Shown in pieces: positions 2,857-22,426 of a stretch of 64,000 nucleotides of DNA. The stretch is from a virus: the IMG/VR virus record IMGVR_UViG_3300010413_000013, positions 12,010 through 76,009 of that record; one strand, 5' to 3'. Each line of letters begins with the position of its first letter. The first letter of the stretch is position 1. The position numbers were made by a program, and so were the translations under genes. The notes beneath the pieces are model-generated. The model was not told the origin of the DNA. It made no database searches and was given only the letters and a program-made list of their open reading frames with translations.

Positions 2857-3459
2857 TTATATCCTTTCATCAGTTTTATCTACTCTAATGCTTATAGGAA
2901 CAGATTCAGTACTACCACCTAGTTCTGTTATCTGCTTTTGATGCCACCGTTCATAATTATTACATAGATTAAAAATAGGACCAGCAGCATGACCTTGAAA
3001 TAGACGTTCTTCTCCATATATTTGACAAACTGCTTTCAGCCTTTTTACTGTGCTACAGAAAGTAGACGGTCTACTAAGTTCACCAGTAGAGTAGACATAT
3101 TCTCCTACTTCCCTTTTTTCAAGTAGTTGATCCTCTGTTAAATGTTTTGTGTTTCTTAAATTCTTTTCATAGTCAAGTAGTGTTACTCTATCCATTCCTA
3201 ATGCAAAAGCTAATCCACTTATAGTATATGGTGTAACTTGTTTCCAATAGCTTTCTACTACTTTCTTTTTATCTCCTTTCCCTTTTGTTATTTTTACTTT
3301 TCTCCAACAGCTTCTAAAGTAGGCTACTCCTGCTTCTTCCATTTGTTCTGGAGTAGAAAACCTTGGTGGTCTACCAAGTCTAGGTAATCCGGTAATAGGA
3401 TCTGTCCAAGAAAAACGGTGCAGCCTTTCTACTATTATCCTTTCTCTCTTCTTCCTCAT
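2857..3459 (-). CDS. terS: Terminase small subunit (P22 gp3-like DNA packaging protein)
   Basis: GRPPRFSTPEQM..YF, PYTISGLAFALGMDRVTLLDYEK and GPIFNLCNNY motifs of the gp3 packaging family. Confidence 0.8.
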   Translation of the reverse strand: MRKKRERIIVERLHRFSWTDPITGLPRLGRPPRFSTPEQMEEAGVAYFRSCWRKVKITKGKGDKKKVVESYWKQVTPYTISGLAFALGMDRVTLLDYEKNLRNTKHLTEDQLLEKREVGEYVYSTGELSRPSTFCSTVKRLKAVCQIYGEERLFQGHAAGPIFNLCNNYERWHQKQITELGGSTESVPISIRVDKTDERI

Positions 3460-3642
3460 TATTATTTATTTAGTCTCCTTCATCTCTTATTTCTTTTAAT
3501 TCTTCTGTTAATACCTCTGCAATTTTATCTCCTAATATACTACTATCCATTTCTACTACTACTTCACTTTTATTCATTAACTCTCGAATGCCTTGCAATT
3601 CAGCAAGGATGTCTTCTAACAATCTTGTTATTTTCCACATTA

Positions 3643-3990
3643 TTATTTCTCCTTTATTTCTACTCCCTCTTTTAGTTCAATGATTATATTTTCCAGACAT
3701 AGATAATCCTTATAAGCAGTAATCATCAAACCCGGTTCTTCTCTTTCCATTATGGTAGATAACACCTTCTTATTCTCTTTATGTAGTTCTATAGTAAATG
3801 GATATTCAAAGAAGCCTAGCTTTAGTGGACGTAACTGTACGGTTATTACTACTCGATTATTTTTTTCATCCAAAAATAAATCATCTGGAATTAAAGTCTT
3901 CTCTGCTATTAAATTATTCTCTGCTGTTCTCAATTGCATAACACTATCGTTTAACATAATAGCAATATGTAATAATTTTTCCAGTGACAT
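3643..3990 (-). CDS. Hypothetical protein
   Basis: AAGGAG RBS upstream. Confidence 0.55.
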   Translation of the reverse strand: MSLEKLLHIAIMLNDSVMQLRTAENNLIAEKTLIPDDLFLDEKNNRVVITVQLRPLKLGFFEYPFTIELHKENKKVLSTIMEREEPGLMITAYKDYLCLENIIIELKEGVEIKEK

Positions 3991-4274: not shown

Positions 4275-4322
4275 AGTACTACTCCTTTTTATTGGTTAAA
4301 AAAATCCTCATCTTTCAATTTC

Positions 4323-4338
4323 ATTATACCACATTTTT
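4323..4338 (-). promoter_or_regulatory. Leftward extended -10 promoter AAAAATGTGGTATAAT
   Basis: The same 16-mer occurs at 4393-4408 and 16749-16764 on the plus strand. Confidence 0.7.
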
Positions 4339-4386
4339 CAACAATCACGCAGGTTTGATAAAAAAATAAAAAAAATTTCGGTAAGA

Positions 4387-4409
4387 TTGAACAAAAATGT
4401 GGTATAATA
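4387..4409 (+). promoter_or_regulatory. Rightward promoter TTGAACAAAAATGTGGTATAATA
   Basis: TGnTATAAT extended -10; identical 23-mer at 16743. Confidence 0.75.
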
Positions 4410-4445
4410 CAAACGTATGATTAGAAATTCTTTCAAGGAGGAAAT

Positions 4446-9172: not shown

Positions 9173-9203
9173 TGGCTAAAGAAGTAATTATGGATGATGA
9201 AGA

Positions 9204-10133
9204 ATGAGTAATTTTGATATTAAAGAATATCTAGAGAATACTGGCATAGAATATTCTTCTGGAGGTAAAAATGTTTCTACTGGATGGATTGGTATTACTT
9301 GCCCATTTTGTGGTGATGTTAGCAATCACTGTGGTATTAATCTCTCCAATAATATTTTTAGTTGTTGGATTTGTGGAGAGTCAGGAGATGAAGTAAAACT
9401 TATAGCAGAGATAGAACAAATAACAGAATACGAAGTTAAGAAGAAAATTATACCACTGTACATAGATCCTTTTAAAACACCACCAAAGAAGAAGAGAAAA
9501 AGAATTGCTTTTGATGTTAAATTACCAGAGTACACTATTAAAGTAGATATAGATAATTTACCTAAAGCAATTATAGCTTGGTTGAAAAGAAGAAAATTTA
9601 GTAAGGATATACTAAAGAAGTATAATGCCTACTACTGTTTGCCCTATTCAAAACATCCTATGTGTCTTTTATTTCCTATTTATGAACATAAAGTAGTAGT
9701 TTCATACATTTTAGTAAACGTAGTTAAAAAGCAATATACTTTATGTCCTGATAGTAATTCTCTAATAAGCAGAAATAGTATCTTATATGGAATAGATAAA
9801 GCAAAGAAATATACAAAAATTTATATAGTAGAAGGATTGACAGATAAATGGAGAATAGGAGATAAAGCAATCGCTATTTTAGGAAAACGTCTGTATAACA
9901 ACCAAGCAAAAAAAATAGCTAAATTTGCAGTAGATAATAAAATAGAAGAAATAGTAATTTTCCTAGATAAAGATGCAAAAAGAGAAGCAGTAAGATCTTT
10001 GAAGAGAAATGCTGGAGCAGTATTACTACAATACCTACCACAACAAATAGAAGTATCTGCTATTTTGCTAGAAAATCAAGACTTAGAAGACGATCCAGAC
10101 CAAGTAGATCCAAAACTACTAACAAAACTATAA
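9204..10133 (+). CDS. DNA primase (Zn finger + TOPRIM)
   Basis: CPFC...CWIC; IVEGLTD and FLDKD. Confidence 0.85.
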   Translation: MSNFDIKEYLENTGIEYSSGGKNVSTGWIGITCPFCGDVSNHCGINLSNNIFSCWICGESGDEVKLIAEIEQITEYEVKKKIIPLYIDPFKTPPKKKRKRIAFDVKLPEYTIKVDIDNLPKAIIAWLKRRKFSKDILKKYNAYYCLPYSKHPMCLLFPIYEHKVVVSYILVNVVKKQYTLCPDSNSLISRNSILYGIDKAKKYTKIYIVEGLTDKWRIGDKAIAILGKRLYNNQAKKIAKFAVDNKIEEIVIFLDKDAKREAVRSLKRNAGAVLLQYLPQQIEVSAILLENQDLEDDPDQVDPKLLTKL

Positions 10134-10350
10134 TTTATATTTATTAGTAGACGTTAGTTTTAGGCCGTTTAATAGACATATAATTACATATAATAGACAC
10201 AAAATAAAACTATTAAATAAATCTACTAATAATTTCAGCTACTTAAAAAACCACTTTAAAGCGGTATTCCAACAAAAAAAATACAAAAAAAGATCATAAA
10301 AAATTTAACTATTATCTATAATAATATCAGCTATTTAGACAAGAAGGTGT

Positions 10351-10379
10351 TTGACAAGCAGATCTACCTATATTACATA
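10351..10379 (+). promoter_or_regulatory. Sigma70-like early promoter
   Basis: Perfect TTGACA at 10351, weak -10 (TACATA at 17 bp spacing), A-tracts upstream. Confidence 0.5.
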
Positions 10380-10384
10380 ACAGT

Positions 10385-10823
10385 TGCCCGGTAAGGGTAT
10401 AGGTTCTCTACATAAGCTTTCCGGAAAGCTAAAACACTTTCGCAGGTTTAATGGTAAATCCGGTATTACCCTCCTGCTGATATCTTTAAAAATTTGGAAT
10501 GATCTTGAAACAAGCAAGCTCCCTTTGCTGATAAAAGCTTGCCTGTTTTTCCTCTGGTAGACTTCTCCTAGTCTGCTATGTAAGTCTTCCTAAGTGGGGA
10601 AGCAATTCCGACTATATAACTCCAGAAGGTAGAAATATAGTAATTATTCTTTTCTGATAAATTGTACAAGGTGGAGACATAAGCGTGAACTTCATTCTTT
10701 GAGGTAGACAGTAAATTGATGGTAGAAGAAAAGAATAATGGTAAATGGTCCCACTTCCTATCATCAGTATGGGAAGTAAAGAAATGCTATGATGTAATAA
10801 TAGGTAGTAGTATTTCGGGACCA
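10385..10823 (+). ncRNA. Putative structured ncRNA or long 5' leader
   Basis: No plausible ORF; at least 8 consecutive helices, several completed by G-U pairs on the plus strand, including a three-way junction at 10746-10823. Confidence 0.6.
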
Positions 10824-10832
10824 AATAAGAGA

Positions 10833-11313
10833 TATTTTATCTTCTTATTTAAGGATAGTAGAGAAAGGTTAGGTTTATTATGAGAATCACTAATACTACA
10901 TACGATCAATTGCAAGAAGCATTAGCAACAGTAAATGAAATGTTTGATAATAACATTACATTTAAAAACTGTACTGCTGCTAATACAAAAGAAACAATTT
11001 GGAATGTTTCACTTAGGGCTGTTGATAGTAGAAAAGCTGGTGCTAGAAGAAGTCCGGGTAGACTTGGTAGAAATGATAGAAGAAGTATTGCTGCTTGCTG
11101 GCATGTTCATGGATACTTCCATGATGCATTGCCAAAAAATGCTACTATTACTACTGGATACTATAATCACAGAACAAAGAAGCATCCCGGTGATCCTTGG
11201 GTAGAACAAAATATGCAAATAGGCTGGGGAACAATACGCCCAATGAGTGATTTGTGTGATTGTGAATAATTTTTATTTTTACTTCTACTATCCTTAAACA
11301 AGAAGATAAGATA
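10833..11313. repeat. 30-bp inverted repeat (10833-10862 / 11284-11313) enclosing one gene
   Basis: TATTTTATCTTCTTATTTAAGGATAGTAGA vs TCTACTATCCTTAAACAAGAAGATAAGATA: 28 Watson-Crick pairs, 1 G-U, 1 mismatch. Confidence 0.9.
10880..11269 (+). CDS. Early hypothetical protein, possibly metal-binding
   Basis: CWHVHG and C-terminal CDC; first gene after the leader. Confidence 0.7.
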   Translation: MRITNTTYDQLQEALATVNEMFDNNITFKNCTAANTKETIWNVSLRAVDSRKAGARRSPGRLGRNDRRSIAACWHVHGYFHDALPKNATITTGYYNHRTKKHPGDPWVEQNMQIGWGTIRPMSDLCDCE

Positions 11314-11315
11314 GA

Positions 11316-11601
11316 TTTATTCTCTTATTAGTGGGGAAGAGAAAGAGTAGGTGTATTATGACAAACTTTGAAAAATATCCTTTCAAGGTAGGACAAGCAG
11401 TAATCTACAATTCTTCTTCCGATAATGAAGACCATTGTGCTTTAATCAAGAAGGTTATAGAAGAGAATCTTCTTGTAGAGGATTGTAAGCCAAGAGCATA
11501 TTGGGAAAAAGAAGAAGATCTTCTTTTTTGGATTCATGTTTCTTCTGTTACCGCAGTAGCATGATAAACATTTTTTGCTTCCCCACTAATAAGAGAATAA
11601 A
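11316..11601. repeat. Perfect 24-bp inverted repeat (11316-11339 / 11578-11601) enclosing one gene
   Basis: TTTATTCTCTTATTAGTGGGGAAG and its exact reverse complement. Confidence 0.92.
11358..11564 (+). CDS. Small early protein, possible SH3/KOW-like fold
   Basis: ATG at 11358 after AGGTG; FKVGQAV motif. Confidence 0.6.
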   Translation: MTNFEKYPFKVGQAVIYNSSSDNEDHCALIKKVIEENLLVEDCKPRAYWEKEEDLLFWIHVSSVTAVA

Positions 11602-11623
11602 ATATAACCAAAGGAGGTATGTT

Positions 11624-11818
11624 ATGAAACGTATTACAGTAGTATTTTTTAATAATGATAGAAAGTATGTGGGTTGGAAGTATATGCATAATACTACCTA
11701 TAGAGAAGTTAGAAATTGGTGCTTATCAGGAAACTTTGTAACTGTAGAAAAGAGAGTTTTTAATTTCGCTAACCATACAAAACTTCTAACAGGTATCTAT
11801 AGAAGAATACTACAATAA
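11624..11818 (+). CDS. Hypothetical early protein
   Basis: AAGGAGGT RBS before MKRITVVFF. Confidence 0.6.
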   Translation: MKRITVVFFNNDRKYVGWKYMHNTTYREVRNWCLSGNFVTVEKRVFNFANHTKLLTGIYRRILQ

Positions 11819-11830
11819 AGGGAGGTAAAA

Positions 11831-12028
11831 ATGCTTTGCAGTGATTATGATAAGAAAGAAGTAAATGAGGTTAGAAGAGAAGATAGCTATCATCCTATGT
11901 ATCATGCTCCACTAGCAAGGAAAATGCCTAGATTTTCAAGTAGAAAAGAAAGAAATGGTAGAGTACATATCTTCTCAAAAACAGAGATTAAACAATATAT
12001 AAAGGAGAAAAACAATGCCGAATTTTAA
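11831..12028 (+). CDS. Hypothetical early protein
   Basis: GGGAGGT RBS. Confidence 0.6.
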   Translation: MLCSDYDKKEVNEVRREDSYHPMYHAPLARKMPRFSSRKERNGRVHIFSKTEIKQYIKEKNNAEF

Positions 12029-12189
12029 AATTGATTTTGATGTAACGATGGTAGTAAAAGCTGCTACCAAATTTGATGCTTATCAAAAAGCATTTAAGAT
12101 TCATTTAGGAGAATTAGAAAAAGAACTACATAAGGGAAATATAGAAGAGTGGGAAGCAACATTAGTTAAAACAATAAAGGAGGTATAAA

Positions 12190-12486
12190 ATGCCATGCTA
12201 CCAAGTAAATTTAGTATCAGTAGAATTTAAGGTAGGTAATAGTCAAATTCTACTTGATATGCTGGAAAGAAAGCAAATGTCATATGTGAAAGATGGTAAT
12301 ACTATTTATATTACTGGTGGAATTAGAGTAAATCTGGAAAAACAAACAATAGTAGCAGGAAGTAATTACCAAGCTAATACTATTAAGAGAGGTTATGCAG
12401 AACAGGTATTGATGACAGTAGCAAAAAAGAAGAGGTGGGCATTTAAGAAAAAGAATGATGGTAAATACCAGATTAGGAGGTTTTAA
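12190..12486 (+). CDS. DUF1257/Ycf35-like protein
   Basis: C-terminal IKRGYAEQVLMTVAKKKRW pattern; neighbourhood with DUF2997-like and Ycf46-like genes. Confidence 0.5.
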   Translation: MPCYQVNLVSVEFKVGNSQILLDMLERKQMSYVKDGNTIYITGGIRVNLEKQTIVAGSNYQANTIKRGYAEQVLMTVAKKKRWAFKKKNDGKYQIRRF

Positions 12487-12487
12487 A

Positions 12488-12703
12488 ATGGCTAATACAT
12501 TTGAAGTAGAAATATTAGAAGATGGAATGTTAAAAATAGATTCAGAAGCATTTTCAGAAAGTATGCATAAAAATGCTGACGATCTGCTAGAAGCAATAAT
12601 AGAAGCAATGGGAGGTAGTGTTACCACTACAAAAAAAGAACACAATTTCTGGAAAAATAAAAATGTATTGAAGGGTGGAAAGATAGTAGAGGTGAAAAAA
12701 TGA
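12488..12703 (+). CDS. DUF2997-like small protein
   Basis: FEVEILEDGMLKID...IIEAMGGSV pattern; AGGAGG RBS. Confidence 0.5.
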   Translation: MANTFEVEILEDGMLKIDSEAFSESMHKNADDLLEAIIEAMGGSVTTTKKEHNFWKNKNVLKGGKIVEVKK

Positions 12704-12936
12704 GAAAAATGCAACAGAAAAAGTATTTTAATAGAGGCTACAAGCCTACAGAAAACCGTGAAAGACACGAAGCAAAGCTGTTAGCTAATGAATTGTATAT
12801 GGCTCCATTTTATAGATACCTAAAAGCAGAGAAGAAAAACAATACTTTTAAAAGCAAGTTTCATAGAAAAGCCTATAACCATTTAACGAAGTCTATCCAA
12901 AGGTTGAATGAAATAGCAATGGAAGACTTTAGGTAG
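12700..12936 (+). CDS. Hypothetical protein
   Basis: ATGA overlap. Confidence 0.5.
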   Translation: MRKMQQKKYFNRGYKPTENRERHEAKLLANELYMAPFYRYLKAEKKNNTFKSKFHRKAYNHLTKSIQRLNEIAMEDFR

Positions 12937-12947
12937 GAAGGTGTGTT

Positions 12948-13160
12948 ATGTGTACTATTTTAAATGCTACCAATTGGGTATTGAGAGCAGATCTCGAAAA
13001 GAGAAATGCCAGAAGAAATGGTACTTTTCAATTTTATTCAAAGAGATTTGTAGATAGAGAAATTTGGCAAGGTTCGGAAGGTGTCTTCCTTGCTAATAAG
13101 GTTATGACTTTCTCTAGGGTAATTATGCAAATGAAGAAATCATGTATTTATAGCAATTAA
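12948..13160 (+). CDS. Hypothetical protein
   Basis: RBS and tight packing. Confidence 0.45.
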   Translation: MCTILNATNWVLRADLEKRNARRNGTFQFYSKRFVDREIWQGSEGVFLANKVMTFSRVIMQMKKSCIYSN

Positions 13161-13175
13161 AGGAGGGTAGAGAAA

Positions 13176-14636
13176 ATGAAAGAACTTGTACTAGGTATAA
13201 AAGCAGGATTTAGTTTATTCTATTTAAATACCTATGAACCAAATGCTGCTATAGATGATGTAAAGAAAGAATTAGAAGAGTTAAAAGAAAATGGCACAAT
13301 ATCAAATATCAAAGAGTGGGATTTTACAGAAAGTGGTGATCCTTCAGAAGTAATAGAAATGCTTTCTGGTGAAAATGCAGAAAATAGAATGGTGGTAATA
13401 GCAAAGAATCTGAATTGGTTTATGCAGGAAGAGGTGGAAGGTAGTAGAACTATTAATCAGTTTCTATTAAATAATATTGAGAAGTTTTCCACTGCTGGTA
13501 ATAGGAGATCATTAGTAGTAGTATCGGCAGATCCTATAGAGAAAGCTATTCCAGCTTGTCTAGTCCAGCATTTCAGATATATAGAATTTAAGCTACCTGA
13601 TAGAGAAGAAATAAAAGAGTTATGGGAAGCATTTAAAGAAGATTATAAAGAAAATCCAAATTGGAAATTACCGGATGATGAAAAACTGGTAATAGAGTAT
13701 GCTAGAGGGTTGACTAGAACTGGAGTAGTAAATGCTTTCTCCCTTGCTACTATTAAAGGGAAGGGAAAGATAGATCCTTTAGAGATAGCTTATTTAAGAG
13801 CAGAAGAAATTGAAAAAACACCGGGTGTGAAATTGGGGAAATTCGGAAAAAACTTCTCTTCTCTAAAAGGTTATGATGTAATCAAGAGATTTGTTAAAAC
13901 TACTGGTAAATCTAAACTAGCTAAAGGTGTATTACTTCTTGGACCTCCGGGGGTAGGAAAGACACACTTTGCAGAATGTGTAGCTAATGAACTTGGTTTA
14001 CTTTGTATTATTGGTGAACTTGCGGAACTAATGGGAGAAGGTTTAGTAGGACAAGCAGAAGCAGCATATAAGAAATTTATTCAAGTAGTAGTTGCTAATG
14101 CTCCTTGTGTTCTGGTATTGGATGAAGTAGAAAAAGGACTTTCTGGAGTTAATAATAAAGGTACTAGTGGAGATTCTACTACTAAGAAATCTGCTTCTCA
14201 ATTGTTGAAACTTATGTCTAATGAGGTGGAAAGAGAAGGTTTATACATTATGGGAACTTGCAATGAAAAAGATTCTCTACCTCCAGAATGGTTAAGAGCA
14301 GAAAGGTGGGATGGAGTATTTTATATTCCATTACCAAATAGTGCAGAACAGAAAGCTATTCTAGATCACTATATGAAAGAATATGATGTAAAAGGGAAAG
14401 CACCAAATATGAAAGGTTGGAGTGGAGCAGAAATCAAAACCTGTTGTAGACTTGCCAAAATGATGAATACTACTCTAGATGATGCTTCAAAGTTTGTTAT
14501 TCCTATTAGTAAAACAAAGAAAGAAGAAATAGAAGCATTAGAAAAGTGGGCATTTGCTGGTAATTGTTTAATAGCAAGTACGCCAGAAGATAAGAAAGAA
14601 ATAAAAACAAGCAATAAAAGAGCAGTAGACTTTTAA
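13176..14636 (+). CDS. AAA+ ATPase, Ycf46-like (degenerate N-terminal AAA + active C-terminal AAA)
   Basis: KGVLLLGPPGVGKT, LVLDEVEKGL, TCN..LPPEWLRAERWD, GWSGAEI. Confidence 0.85.
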   Translation: MKELVLGIKAGFSLFYLNTYEPNAAIDDVKKELEELKENGTISNIKEWDFTESGDPSEVIEMLSGENAENRMVVIAKNLNWFMQEEVEGSRTINQFLLNNIEKFSTAGNRRSLVVVSADPIEKAIPACLVQHFRYIEFKLPDREEIKELWEAFKEDYKENPNWKLPDDEKLVIEYARGLTRTGVVNAFSLATIKGKGKIDPLEIAYLRAEEIEKTPGVKLGKFGKNFSSLKGYDVIKRFVKTTGKSKLAKGVLLLGPPGVGKTHFAECVANELGLLCIIGELAELMGEGLVGQAEAAYKKFIQVVVANAPCVLVLDEVEKGLSGVNNKGTSGDSTTKKSASQLLKLMSNEVEREGLYIMGTCNEKDSLPPEWLRAERWDGVFYIPLPNSAEQKAILDHYMKEYDVKGKAPNMKGWSGAEIKTCCRLAKMMNTTLDDASKFVIPISKTKKEEIEALEKWAFAGNCLIASTPEDKKEIKTSNKRAVDF

Positions 14637-14651
14637 TCAAAGGAGAAAAAA

Positions 14652-15029
14652 ATGAATGAACAGGAATTTAAAGAAAATTACAAATGTATGCAAATGAAAA
14701 TATCGTATCCTAAACTTCAAGGTGATATTGATATTGAATTGCCTCTGTTTAGAAGAAGAGTAGAAAACACATTAGAAAAAGCTAATAAGATGTTTGGAGA
14801 ATTACAGCATGTTCTATTGATAGATATAACAGAGAATAATACTAATGTAGCAGTTGTGGTAATGAAACACATTGAAGATGAAAATGTAGAACATTTTATG
14901 AAAATATTAGGTGGAGAAGTAATGGTTGAAGCTGCTAGATCTAATGGTAGAGATGAACTATCAACAACAGAACTAATACAAATTATGTCAGCAATGCAAA
15001 ATGCTGAAGAAGAAAAGGAGCAAAAATGA
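14652..15029 (+). CDS. Hypothetical protein
   Basis: AAGGAG RBS. Confidence 0.6.
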   Translation: MNEQEFKENYKCMQMKISYPKLQGDIDIELPLFRRRVENTLEKANKMFGELQHVLLIDITENNTNVAVVVMKHIEDENVEHFMKILGGEVMVEAARSNGRDELSTTELIQIMSAMQNAEEEKEQK

Positions 15030-15898
15030 AAGTACAAAAAGTAAATACAGAAGGAATTTTTCTAAATGTCAAGATAAGAATGTGGGGAGCGAGTAGTAAA
15101 GTAGAGAAAGACAAGCTTGGCTCCCTTCCTTCCGATATCGTAAAAGCTACACAAGCACTAATTTTGGAAGAAGATAAAGAAAAGCTTGAACAATTGGGAA
15201 AGATTAAAACAAAAGTCACTGTTACCTACCTTAATAGTGTTTCTTTTCCATTTCCTGTACTTGGATTTGTAATGGTTCCTAGAGAAAGAGTAATGGAAAT
15301 TGATAGGTACTTGGAAGAAGTAAAAAAGGAATTTTTTGAAGTAGTAGATGGAATGGATATTGAAAAATACAAAGAAAACTTTAAAGCTAAACACCCTAAG
15401 TATTATAAACCAAACAAGTATCCATCGCAAAAATATTTTAGATCCCATTTCGCTTTCGAGTGGAGTTTTAAAGATTTATCTCCTAGTGATTCTCTGAAGT
15501 CAATAGATCCAAAGCTGTACAAAGAAGAGCAGGATAAATTCAAAGAAGATATTAAACAAATGGAAGAAGATACAATAAATCTTATTTCTAATGACATTCT
15601 AATGAGAGTAAACAATCTAAAAGATATGTGTTCTGGAAAGAAGAGAATAAGCCAACGAACCATTAATGGTCTGGAAAGTCTTCTTGAAAAGTGGGATATG
15701 TTATGGAAAGGTTTTATTAGTAATGATGCTTTAAAAGAAGCAATTGCAAAAATTAAAGAAAACATAGTAGACCTAAATGCAGATGATTTGAGGTTCGATA
15801 GAGCAGCAAAAAGACAAGTTAAAAAAGCAGTAACAGAAATTATTGATACTGTACAAACTGAAGTAGAGAATATTGGAAAACGTGATCTGGTATTCTAA
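15026..15898 (+). CDS. DUF3150-like protein
   Basis: LNVKIRMWGAS, SFPF..GFVMVP, YPS...F.FEW pattern. Confidence 0.55.
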   Translation: MKVQKVNTEGIFLNVKIRMWGASSKVEKDKLGSLPSDIVKATQALILEEDKEKLEQLGKIKTKVTVTYLNSVSFPFPVLGFVMVPRERVMEIDRYLEEVKKEFFEVVDGMDIEKYKENFKAKHPKYYKPNKYPSQKYFRSHFAFEWSFKDLSPSDSLKSIDPKLYKEEQDKFKEDIKQMEEDTINLISNDILMRVNNLKDMCSGKKRISQRTINGLESLLEKWDMLWKGFISNDALKEAIAKIKENIVDLNADDLRFDRAAKRQVKKAVTEIIDTVQTEVENIGKRDLVF

Positions 15899-19795: not shown

Positions 19796-22426
19796 ATGGC
19801 AAAGGAAGGTTTTTATACAGAAGAGAAAATGGCAAAAAAGAAAAAACCTATTAAGAGATCAGTACTACTACCAAACGAAAAAGATGGTTGTGAAAAGTGT
19901 GGATTATACAAACAAACAATGTTGCATAATCCAAAATTAAAACCTTATGGTAGTTTCAGAAAAGAAGTACTTGTTATAGGAGAAGCAGTAACAGCAAAAG
20001 ATGATTATAATGGAAAACCTTTTAGTATTAAGGATGATGCATGGAAAGTATTACATAAAGCCTTTCAAAATTGTGGATGGAGTTTATATAGAGATTGTAA
20101 AATAGTAAATTGCATAGACTGTAGATCAGTAAAAATAGTAGGAGAAGGACATGATTCTTTCATTACTGATAAAACACCTACTAAAACAGAAATACGATGT
20201 TGTTGGAATAGAAAGCTATCAGCTATTGAGAAGTATAAACCAAAAGCTGTTTTACTAGTAGGTGAAAAAGCTATATCTTCTTGGTATAGCTTTGATGAAG
20301 ACAGAAACGCCTTTTCAGAAGTATCCTTGTCTAGTTGGAGAGGAAAAATAATAAAAGATAGAAAACTGAATATATGGGTAGGACATATATACGATCCTTC
20401 ATACATAATTAGAGGAAAGGATAAATATTTTAATATTTATTGCAAAGAACTTAGGAACTTTCTAAAGAAAGTAGATGAACCACTTGAATTAGAACCAATG
20501 CCCAAAATCCACAACTTGAAAAAATTTGAAGAAGTAAAGAAGTTATTAAGCAGGATACTAAGAGAGAAAGGAGAGATCTGCTTTGACTATGAAACCAGTT
20601 CTTTTAGATACTTTGAAAATCAGCATGAATTATATTTAGTATCCATATGCTATAAAGGGAAGACATTTGTTTTTCCCTACGACTTTCCACATAAGTATAA
20701 GAATAATAGTAGAGTAGCATGGTGGAGTAGGTGGGAAAGAAGAGAAATAAAAAATCTACTAAAACGAATCCTTGAAGATCCTACAATTACTAAAGTAGCA
20801 CAAAACATAAAGCATGAAATAATTGCTTCTGAATATTTGGTAGAAGATGCAAAAGTTAGAGGTGCAGCATTCGACACAATGATTGCACACCACGTATTAG
20901 ATGAAACTGCTAAGACTACAGGATTAAAATTTCAAACCTTCTACCATTTTGGAGTATATGATTATAGTAGAGAAATGAAAAGATATATGGTAGCTGAAAG
21001 AGGAGAGAAAAATAATTTTATACTTGCTCCTACTAAAGAAGCTTTTAATTATTGTGGTTATGATAGTGCATTTACTAATAGAATAAAAAAGATCCAAAGG
21101 AGACAATTAAAAGAACAGAAACTAACCAAAGCATATGATTTATTGCATACAGGAGTAATAGCCTATGCCGACATAGAACAAAATGGAATTAAAATAGATG
21201 TAACATTAGCAAAGAAACTAAAGAACCAGTGGGATAATAGAATAGTAGAACTCAAAGACAGTATATTGAATAGTAAAGAAGCAAGGAGGTTTGAAAAGCT
21301 GAAGGGTAGACCTATGGCTTATAATAAAGAATTATCAGCAGCAGATTTGAGAGTACTACTATTTGATATACTGAAGATCAAACCAATAAAACACACCAAA
21401 ACAACTTGGTCTGTTGATAAAGAAGTATTAACTAAAATTGCTGCTAGGAATAAACTAGAGATACTAGACCACGAATTGGAAATAAGAATACTACAAAAAC
21501 TTTCTGGTACATACCTATCACAAATATTAGATAATGAAGTAAATGGGTTTATCTACCCAAATTTCAATCTACATATACCAGCAAGCTACAGATCTAGTTC
21601 TAATGATCCTAATTTACAGAATCAACCAAAGAGATATGAAGCAGGGAAGGAGATAAGAAGACTTTTTACTACTAGGTTTGGGCAGTTCGGACAGTTAGCA
21701 AATCCAGACTATAAAGCAATGGAAGTTAGAATTATAGCTTGTGTAACAAAAGATCCTGTACTAATAGACTTCATTGTTAGTGGTAACGATCCTCATGCCT
21801 ATTGGTCAGAAAAGATATTTAGTAGAATCTTTAGTAGTAAAGAAAGAACAAAAGAATTAAGACAGGAAACAAAAAATAAACTTGTTTTTCCTTGCTTCTA
21901 TGGATCTTTCTATAAGAAAACCGCACCCGATTTATGGGAAGTATTGACAGATGAAGAAAGAAGAGAATGGAAAAACTATAACAAATTCGAGCAACACATA
22001 GAAGATGTAGAAGACGACTTTTGGACTATGTTTAAAGTTACTAGAGAATGGCAGAATAATTATGTTAATAGTTATTATAAAAAAGGCTATATAAGAGATT
22101 ACGCTTGGGGATTTATTAGAAGAGGTTATTTAGATAGAACGAAAATATTTAACTTCCCAATTCAAGGACCAGCCTTTCATTGTTTACAATGGAGTATTAA
22201 TGAGATCTGGAAACAAAACTTCTTTAACATGAAGAGTCTACTATGTGGAGAGATCCATGATGAACTTTTTTGGGATAACTGGAGAAGAGAATTTCCAGTA
22301 TTGAAAAAGAAAGTAGACTATATCATGACAGAAAAAATCAGAGAAGATAATCCTTGGATTATAGTACCACTAGAGACAGAATGGGAAATAGGTCCAAATT
22401 GGGCAGAGATGAAAGAAGTAAAATGA
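19796..22426 (+). CDS. polA: Family A DNA polymerase with N-terminal uracil-DNA-glycosylase-like domain (SPO1-type architecture)
   Basis: CEKCGL..VIGEA (UDG family 4-like), FDYET exonuclease, RSSSNDPNLQN, DYKAMEVR, NFPIQG, IHDE. Confidence 0.9.
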   Translation: MAKEGFYTEEKMAKKKKPIKRSVLLPNEKDGCEKCGLYKQTMLHNPKLKPYGSFRKEVLVIGEAVTAKDDYNGKPFSIKDDAWKVLHKAFQNCGWSLYRDCKIVNCIDCRSVKIVGEGHDSFITDKTPTKTEIRCCWNRKLSAIEKYKPKAVLLVGEKAISSWYSFDEDRNAFSEVSLSSWRGKIIKDRKLNIWVGHIYDPSYIIRGKDKYFNIYCKELRNFLKKVDEPLELEPMPKIHNLKKFEEVKKLLSRILREKGEICFDYETSSFRYFENQHELYLVSICYKGKTFVFPYDFPHKYKNNSRVAWWSRWERREIKNLLKRILEDPTITKVAQNIKHEIIASEYLVEDAKVRGAAFDTMIAHHVLDETAKTTGLKFQTFYHFGVYDYSREMKRYMVAERGEKNNFILAPTKEAFNYCGYDSAFTNRIKKIQRRQLKEQKLTKAYDLLHTGVIAYADIEQNGIKIDVTLAKKLKNQWDNRIVELKDSILNSKEARRFEKLKGRPMAYNKELSAADLRVLLFDILKIKPIKHTKTTWSVDKEVLTKIAARNKLEILDHELEIRILQKLSGTYLSQILDNEVNGFIYPNFNLHIPASYRSSSNDPNLQNQPKRYEAGKEIRRLFTTRFGQFGQLANPDYKAMEVRIIACVTKDPVLIDFIVSGNDPHAYWSEKIFSRIFSSKERTKELRQETKNKLVFPCFYGSFYKKTAPDLWEVLTDEERREWKNYNKFEQHIEDVEDDFWTMFKVTREWQNNYVNSYYKKGYIRDYAWGFIRRGYLDRTKIFNFPIQGPAFHCLQWSINEIWKQNFFNMKSLLCGEIHDELFWDNWRREFPVLKKKVDYIMTEKIREDNPWIIVPLETEWEIGPNWAEMKEVK

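Follow-up and report, generated by a model that had tools for sequence, protein, structure and literature searches.

Two neighbouring genes of a complete 76,009-bp phage from IMG/VR, here called p129 and p68, are each enclosed by a long inverted repeat of their own. In the predicted fold of the plus-strand transcript, each open reading frame and its start region form the loop of a long helix, as a sequence-only reading of this DNA had anticipated; the two helices abut, and RNAfold gives both a pair probability near 1. Our preferred interpretation, to which we give a probability of roughly one half, is that these helices form in the mRNA, loop out each cistron and are cut or stabilised through host RNase III. 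The source record carries direct terminal repeats and has a G+C content of ~33%; the window, i.e. the whole 64,000-nt stretch analysed, corresponds to its bases 12010–76009, and positions below are those of the window (Table 1).

Table 1. Positions of the two enclosed units and of the flanking features named in the text
Feature	Position	Strand	Description
Primase	9204–10133	+	In the replication module, with a DnaB-like helicase and an SF2 helicase
Upstream non-coding stretch	10134–10832 (~700 nt)	+	Follows the primase; moderately structured
Unit 1 left arm	10833–10862	+	Outer shared motif 10836–10849; private inner part 10850–10862
Unit 1 leader AGAGAAAGGTTAGGTTTATTATG	10860–10882	+	Ribosome-binding region and ATG; its first 3 nt also belong to the left arm
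p129	10880–11269	+	129 aa; real gene family
Unit 1 right arm	11284–11313	+	Begins 14 nt past the stop codon
Unit 2 left arm	11316–11344	+	Perfect core 11316–11339; outer motif 11316–11329; private inner part 11330–11339
Unit 2 leader AGAGAAAGAGTAGGTGTATTATG	11338–11360	+	Leader match
p68	11358–11564	+	68 aa; orphan; coding status from the ORF and the shared leader only
Unit 2 right arm	11573–11601	+	Perfect core 11578–11601, 13 nt past the stop codon
Ycf46-type AAA ATPase	13176–14636	+	With DUF3150

Two adjacent inverted repeats and the genes they enclose

Both inverted repeats were confirmed at the positions first proposed, each around one open reading frame with its ribosome-binding region. 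In unit 1, 28 of the 30 positions form Watson-Crick pairs, the others being one U·G (10836·11310) and one A·C (10847·11299), and the T-rich tract at 11270–11283 can weakly prolong the pairing into the leader. The repeat of unit 2 is perfect over its core (24/24) and pairs at 27 of 29 positions when extended to the full arms. Only 2 nt (11314–11315) separate the arms of the two units. A census of inverted repeats with arms 60–1500 nt apart revealed that these are the only long-range repeats of such strength in the 76,009-bp genome, with scores of 24 and 24 against 16 for the next best, while the top score in 60 first-order Markov random genomes was 19. When G·U pairs were allowed, the two repeats reached 24–26 bp, whereas the background did not exceed 19, and no other helix on either strand rose above it. 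Unrelated viral loci totalling ~1.36 Mb yielded only three non-simple repeats with a score of 24 or higher: one was an iteron block, one a nested palindrome and one an artefact at a contig end. The pattern is far beyond chance. A weaker repeat in the window (1120–1157/1576–1613) was dropped, as it lies within coding sequence.

The same sequence occurs in contigs of two marine-sediment runs (X1 and X2), probably its source, and fragments of it occur in two soil runs of another study (X3 and X4), no RNA run being listed among those that contain it; this presence in contigs of several runs shows that the units are not an assembly artefact. The soil contigs also reveal a patch at 12700–12765 that is hypervariable between strains, with ~13 substitutions and 18 deleted bases in sequence otherwise identical to the reference; it covers the overlap of genes 12455–12703 and 12700–12936 and the first codons of the latter.

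Both enclosed genes belong to a plus-strand block at ~4900–30800 that constitutes a replication/recombination module and also encodes a family A polymerase with a UDG-like N terminus, a RecA-like protein and an SbcC-like protein. They sit between the primase and the Ycf46-type AAA/DUF3150 module, past the ~700 nt that lack a credible ORF, and their location inside the replication module does not bear out the suggestion that they are early host-takeover genes. Neither promoter-like nor terminator-like sites were found on the plus strand near the units or in the arms. Elsewhere in the window, the divergent intergenic region at 4298–4433 contains a 49-nt imperfect palindrome with two opposed TGTGGTATAAT extended −10 boxes (4323–4331 on the minus strand and 4400–4408 on the plus strand), which are probably divergent early promoters. 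The N-terminal domain of the family A DNA polymerase (19796–22426) belongs to the uracil-DNA-glycosylase superfamily and spans residues 51–218.

An invariant CWHVHGYF motif and, at the C terminus, a CxC characterise the p129 family. The protein has no match in Pfam, PHROGs or the ESM Atlas, and its AlphaFold model (pLDDT 72) gave no fold match in the PDB with Foldseek. For p68 there were only low-complexity matches among 1.84 billion representatives, and it shows no relation to p129. Conservation of the stems around homologous genes, proposed earlier as a check, was not observed for p129: an enclosing repeat is found around none of its 30 testable homologues (4 real ones in viral contigs and 26 in metagenome contigs), from which it follows that the arms belong to the locus and not to the gene. 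In the homologue at 3412–3780 of a 74.6-kb viral contig (L009), the reading frame set by the start codon is broken by stops, yet residues 4–128 are aligned by tblastn; this copy is probably frameshifted or a pseudogene.

The locus is phylogenetically isolated. Queries with the primase, the AAA ATPase and p68 returned no close relatives in viral contigs, a blastn search of 9200–13200 against 50,697 phage records gave no match, and the 65-aa downstream protein had no match in a metagenome scan. Alignment of the AAA protein as a route to relatives was abandoned because it was swamped by generic Walker-A matches; the nearest AAA homologue is 61% identical, and the best one examined in context, on contig L041 (46% identity), has only the AAA four-gene module in common with the window and no enclosing repeat. 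That module, consisting of a 98-aa gene, an 82-aa gene, the Ycf46-type AAA ATPase and the DUF3150 protein, lies at 12190–15898 in the window and at 9207–12481 in L041, an otherwise different 52-kb phage, with 30–46% identity between the two. The AAA family itself has hundreds of metagenomic members, on contigs of 70–98 kb.

The non-coding stretch upstream of unit 1 ends, just before the unit, in a degenerate reverse copy of the shared arm motif (~10822–10835). The segment 10134–10879 folds better than shuffled sequences on both strands (z −3.1 on plus, −2.8 on minus), it begins near a TTGACA at 10351–10356, and it contains a 13-mer, AGTGGGGAAGCAA at 10593–10605, that is also present in the unit 2 right arm when this is read as its reverse complement. 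The segment may represent a leader, a structured RNA or an origin. An Rfam search of 10050–11700 returned no family, only sub-threshold noise, and a further enclosing helix around this upstream RNA was rejected, the pairing not exceeding that of shuffles.

A common frame around predicted private helices

The two repeat pairs had been described as unrelated in sequence, which is wrong: all four arms carry the same outer 14-nt motif, TTTATYYTCTTRTT, located on the left arms as listed in Table 1 and in reverse at 11297–11310 and 11588–11601 on the right arms, and the leaders are also alike. Only the inner 10–16 nt of each helix are private to its unit. The two copies of the common 23-nt leader, AGAGAAAGnnTAGGTnTATTATG, agree at 20 of 23 positions and are the only matches to it in the window, where 0.05 would be expected. 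The geometry is equally constant, with 17–18 nt between arm and ATG and 13–14 nt between stop codon and arm in both units, arms that are wholly intergenic, and units that are co-directional with the operon; a Shine-Dalgarno-like AGGT lies outside the core helices. From the size of the ribosome footprint we infer that the core helices lie just outside the span covered by the ribosome at initiation and termination, a spacing that would let translation run without melting the core helix.

The private inner parts of the two units have nothing in common, but within a unit the left and right copies are perfectly complementary, and the positions of the shared motif at which the units differ (10841/10842 versus 11321/11322) are matched by changes in the partner arm. 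What has been kept is thus the long-range pairing and not a local palindrome. Moreover, since the private parts are complementary across the gene and not across the junction, the enclosure is not a by-product of repeated intergenic palindromes. With no close relative found, matched differences are seen only between these two paralogous units. Scanning other sequences for the shared leader gave four chance matches, none with repeats, and the reverse-forward junction pattern proved to be an unspecific AT-rich palindrome, with at least 104 matches and the architecture in none of them.

Folding of a ~1.86-kb model transcript with RNAfold assigned both helices a pair probability of ~0.9–1.0, with duplex energies of −36.7 and −38.5 kcal/mol for the two private helices. 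The left arm of unit 1 can also pair with the right arm of unit 2 at 17 of 18 positions through the shared motif, but the alternative cross and junction-local pairings reach only −12.5 and −12.7 kcal/mol and have a predicted probability of zero. The junction at 11262–11360 folds locally with −14.6 kcal/mol, no better than shuffles (z +0.53). For the start regions, partial pairing is predicted: their mean unpaired probabilities are 0.38 and 0.28, and those of the next two genes 0.43 and 0.68. Background energies in the AT-rich flanks were so high as to make a gene-by-gene screen with RNAduplex uninformative.

With regard to the strand on which pairing occurs, the extra pairs that extend the helices are G·U pairs on the plus strand (G10863·U11283 and G11341·U11576). 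The core arms do not single out a strand, since G·U and A·C occur once each in them, and on the minus strand the unit 1 repeat would form 26 uninterrupted pairs.

Proposed helices in the mRNA and the alternatives

We infer that the functional form of the repeats is RNA and not DNA, and that RNase III acts on it. As proposed, once each gene has been transcribed in the plus-strand RNA its flanks would pair, over ~30 bp in unit 1 and 24–29 bp in unit 2, so that each cistron and its ribosome-binding site would be looped out at the end of a stalk of its own, and only 2 nt would separate the two stalks, back to back. Long regular helices of this kind would be expected substrates of the double-strand-specific RNase III of the host, the phage itself encoding none. 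Cuts would then yield a separate leader RNA, a p129 message, a p68 message and a downstream polycistronic message, and the released messages would each keep paired 5' and 3' ends. The net effect might be stabilisation together with insulation, or alternatively timed decay. Circularised RNA units, raised as a further option in the sequence-only reading, find no support in a phage whose whole genome gave no match to an RNA ligase, RtcB or RNase III.

This interpretation is favoured because the only strong long-range inverted repeats of the genome are these two, which lie side by side and greatly exceed what random sequence would give, and because of the probabilities and energies of their helices, their private complementarity, their common geometry and their G·U extensions on the plus strand; published precedents (PMC11780869, PMC6582327) and the T5 analogue described below also argue for it. 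Against it, the core arms do not favour either strand, there are two units only, and near-perfect arms would be expected from a recent duplication as well.

The same folding and geometry would also be found if the helices formed in the mRNA and acted without RNase III, by protecting the ends from exonucleases and 5'-end-dependent RNases, by insulating the cistrons or by tuning ribosome access, for which the predicted partial pairing of the start regions also speaks. In the mRNA of Staphylococcus aureus icaR, a short 3' motif reportedly masks the Shine-Dalgarno sequence, whereas here the helices of 24–30 bp end short of the ribosome-binding site. The translation of icaR is controlled by 5'-3' UTR pairing, which resembles the present case in that both ends of one bacterial mRNA pair and provides a precedent for such a role (PMC3868564). 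We nevertheless consider action without RNase III unlikely, as 24–30 near-perfect base pairs exceed the needs of end protection or control of the ribosome-binding site, RNase III, where present, is expected to cut such helices, and the AGGT lies outside the core.

It is quite improbable that the repeats are a functionless relic, i.e. the by-product of a recent insertion or duplication of both genes, for example by template switching. Near-perfect arms fit recent events, the units are limited to one spot in one phage lineage, and the 30 testable p129 homologues elsewhere are without an enclosing repeat; but the common frame of outer motif, leader, start and stop spacing and orientation is unexpected of two independent relics, and the background frequency, ~3 such repeats per 1.36 Mb, also speaks against this reading.

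The sequence-only reading had also offered a cassette at the DNA level, in which the arms would be terminal inverted repeats or recombination sites and the genes would invert, excise or be exchanged as modules. Arms of 24–30 bp do have the size of hix, gix or Xer-type sites, the outer 14-nt motif occurs on all four arms with reverse-forward junctions at both 5' borders, and the enclosed genes are accessory, with few or no relatives. However, neither Resolvase nor Phage_integrase, the families of the serine and tyrosine recombinases, has a match anywhere in the phage, and the same holds for reverse transcriptase (RVT_1). The genome contains the arms only once, an exact copy of them is absent from 185,579 prokaryote species genomes, and no target-site duplication was found, with no direct repeat at unit 2 and merely a 2-nt GA at unit 1. 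In the contigs of four runs from two studies, a type of data that drops rare variants, only the reference orientation was seen; the contigs that span the whole stretch (X1, X2) and an X4 contig that bridges the left arm show no joints at the arms, the X3 and X4 contigs having a depth of 2–4x and leaving 11167–12262 uncovered. Furthermore, a shared recombinase would need no private inner complementarity, and a promoterless gene, if inverted, would merely fall silent. The lack of a recombinase, of rearranged contigs and of other copies of the arms leaves capture or swapping of DNA cassettes unsupported, and we consider it about as improbable as a relic.

One diverged relative from the source sample, record 12 of run X2, offers something in favour of this last reading, as it keeps the right-arm region of unit 2 (38/42) without the next gene: gene 11624–11818 is skipped, and 17 other bases link the right-arm region to what is a homologue of gene 11831–12028. 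This shows module-level variation beside the units and not of the units themselves.

Several defined DNA elements were also rejected. A MITE or TIR transposon with a passenger gene does not agree with the single copies and the missing target-site duplication, an invertible segment of the Hin/Gin type does not agree with the absence of a recombinase from the whole phage, and a retron msr-msd (a1/a2) does not agree with the absence of RVT_1 or with a unit 1 loop that is a conserved protein gene. The PeSLs of T4-type phages are direct repeats that combine a strong sigma-70 promoter with a local terminator stem-loop and serve DNA recombination; they resemble the present elements in being small, repeated and intergenic and in bordering accessory orphan genes of a variable region (PMC2839356). 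A PeSL cassette was rejected because the arms carry no promoter-like or terminator-like site on the plus strand, the local hairpin is weak, and the pairing is long-range and private.

Known long-range stems and the wider meaning

In the early region of phage T7, host RNase III cuts the polycistronic RNA into single-gene messages at local intergenic hairpins. The likeness to the window, where splitting of a phage polycistronic RNA by host RNase III is a proposal, ends at the kind of structure that would be cut, for the junction hairpin is weak here (−14.6 kcal/mol) and the strong pairing is long-range; an intercistronic hairpin of the T7 type was accordingly rejected, the junction at 11262–11360 (z +0.53) offering no stable local hairpin.

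RNase III excises rRNAs from their precursors through long flanking stems (PMC6582327). The present units share with the 16S and 23S stalks of rrn transcripts a long helix between sequences that lie hundreds of nucleotides apart, on either side of the RNA that is or would be released, and a side-by-side order of successive units, and with 30 bp and 24–29 bp at a probability near 1 they have the flanking helix of ~20 bp or more that marks a processing stalk; they differ in that their loops are phage protein-coding cistrons with ribosome-binding sites, in having no sequence relation to the rrn stalks, and in that cleavage is a proposal. In Bacillus subtilis, RNase III cleaves both strands of mRNA duplexes whose halves lie more than 100 nt apart (PMC11780869). 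These duplexes likewise reach across hundreds of nucleotides of mRNA, although they are scattered sites in cellular mRNAs and are not described as private one-cistron helices in a chain (PMC11780869).

A parallel in a cultured phage came from T5 (AY543070), where the repeat IRA/IRA' likewise encloses a gene, so that the earlier statement that no precedent was known went too far. IRA/IRA' is part of Repeat Region 1 in the first-step-transfer DNA and is described as untranslated, conserved and of unknown function (bioRxiv 10.1101/866236). It extends over 39 nt at 82% with a core of 24–28 bp, encloses the pre-early ORF T5.008 (67 aa) with its start region, and has a right arm that starts 7 nt past the T5.008 stop codon. 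The 24-bp core stays paired in 11 T5-like phages (77–100% identity), among which two columns show compensatory double changes and G·U pairs on the mRNA strand occur in five columns versus C·A in one. In this small sample of 11 phages the substitutions are suggestive of an RNA-level helix in the T5 analogue. It is an analogue and not a relative, as it has no sequence similarity to the window (blastn of 9200–13200), and it is a single such unit beside a second repeat around hegG, in contrast to two abutting private stalks within a shared frame. That second repeat (5275–5311/6260–6296; 37 nt, 86%) surrounds hegG, which encodes an HNH endonuclease, together with two annotated promoters. Another gene-enclosing repeat may be present in an unrelated 99-kb viral contig (L037), in which a 27-nt inverted repeat with two mismatches (11457–11483/12164–12190) lies around a 219-aa ORF, its right arm overlapping the last codons of that ORF.

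Long-range processing stems are of a known kind, and the enclosure of whole phage cistrons, each in a private stem, would be a variant of it. It is possible, if doubtful, that tailed phages generally package their accessory genes in private per-gene RNA stalks, a strategy not described so far. As a tentative picture, a reusable frame of common outer motif, common leader and fixed spacing might take in different ORFs, and host RNase III might release or stabilise each message. The same frame could conceivably also ease the exchange of modules between phages. On this view as a whole, the window would be a two-unit instance and T5 IRA/IRA' a cultured one.

The window alone provides one clean, phylogenetically isolated example, to which the common motif and leader and the private inner stems add detail, and through the T5 analogue the idea is open to experiment in Escherichia coli. 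If the helices work as proposed, phages would apply to single protein genes the looping-out between long flanking stems by which rRNAs are released, and accessory genes would each obtain their own control of processing and stability, independent of their neighbours. This would account for the recurrence of such repeats around small orphan genes and would provide, for the annotation of uncultured phages, a marker of post-transcriptional units that can be read from sequence alone.
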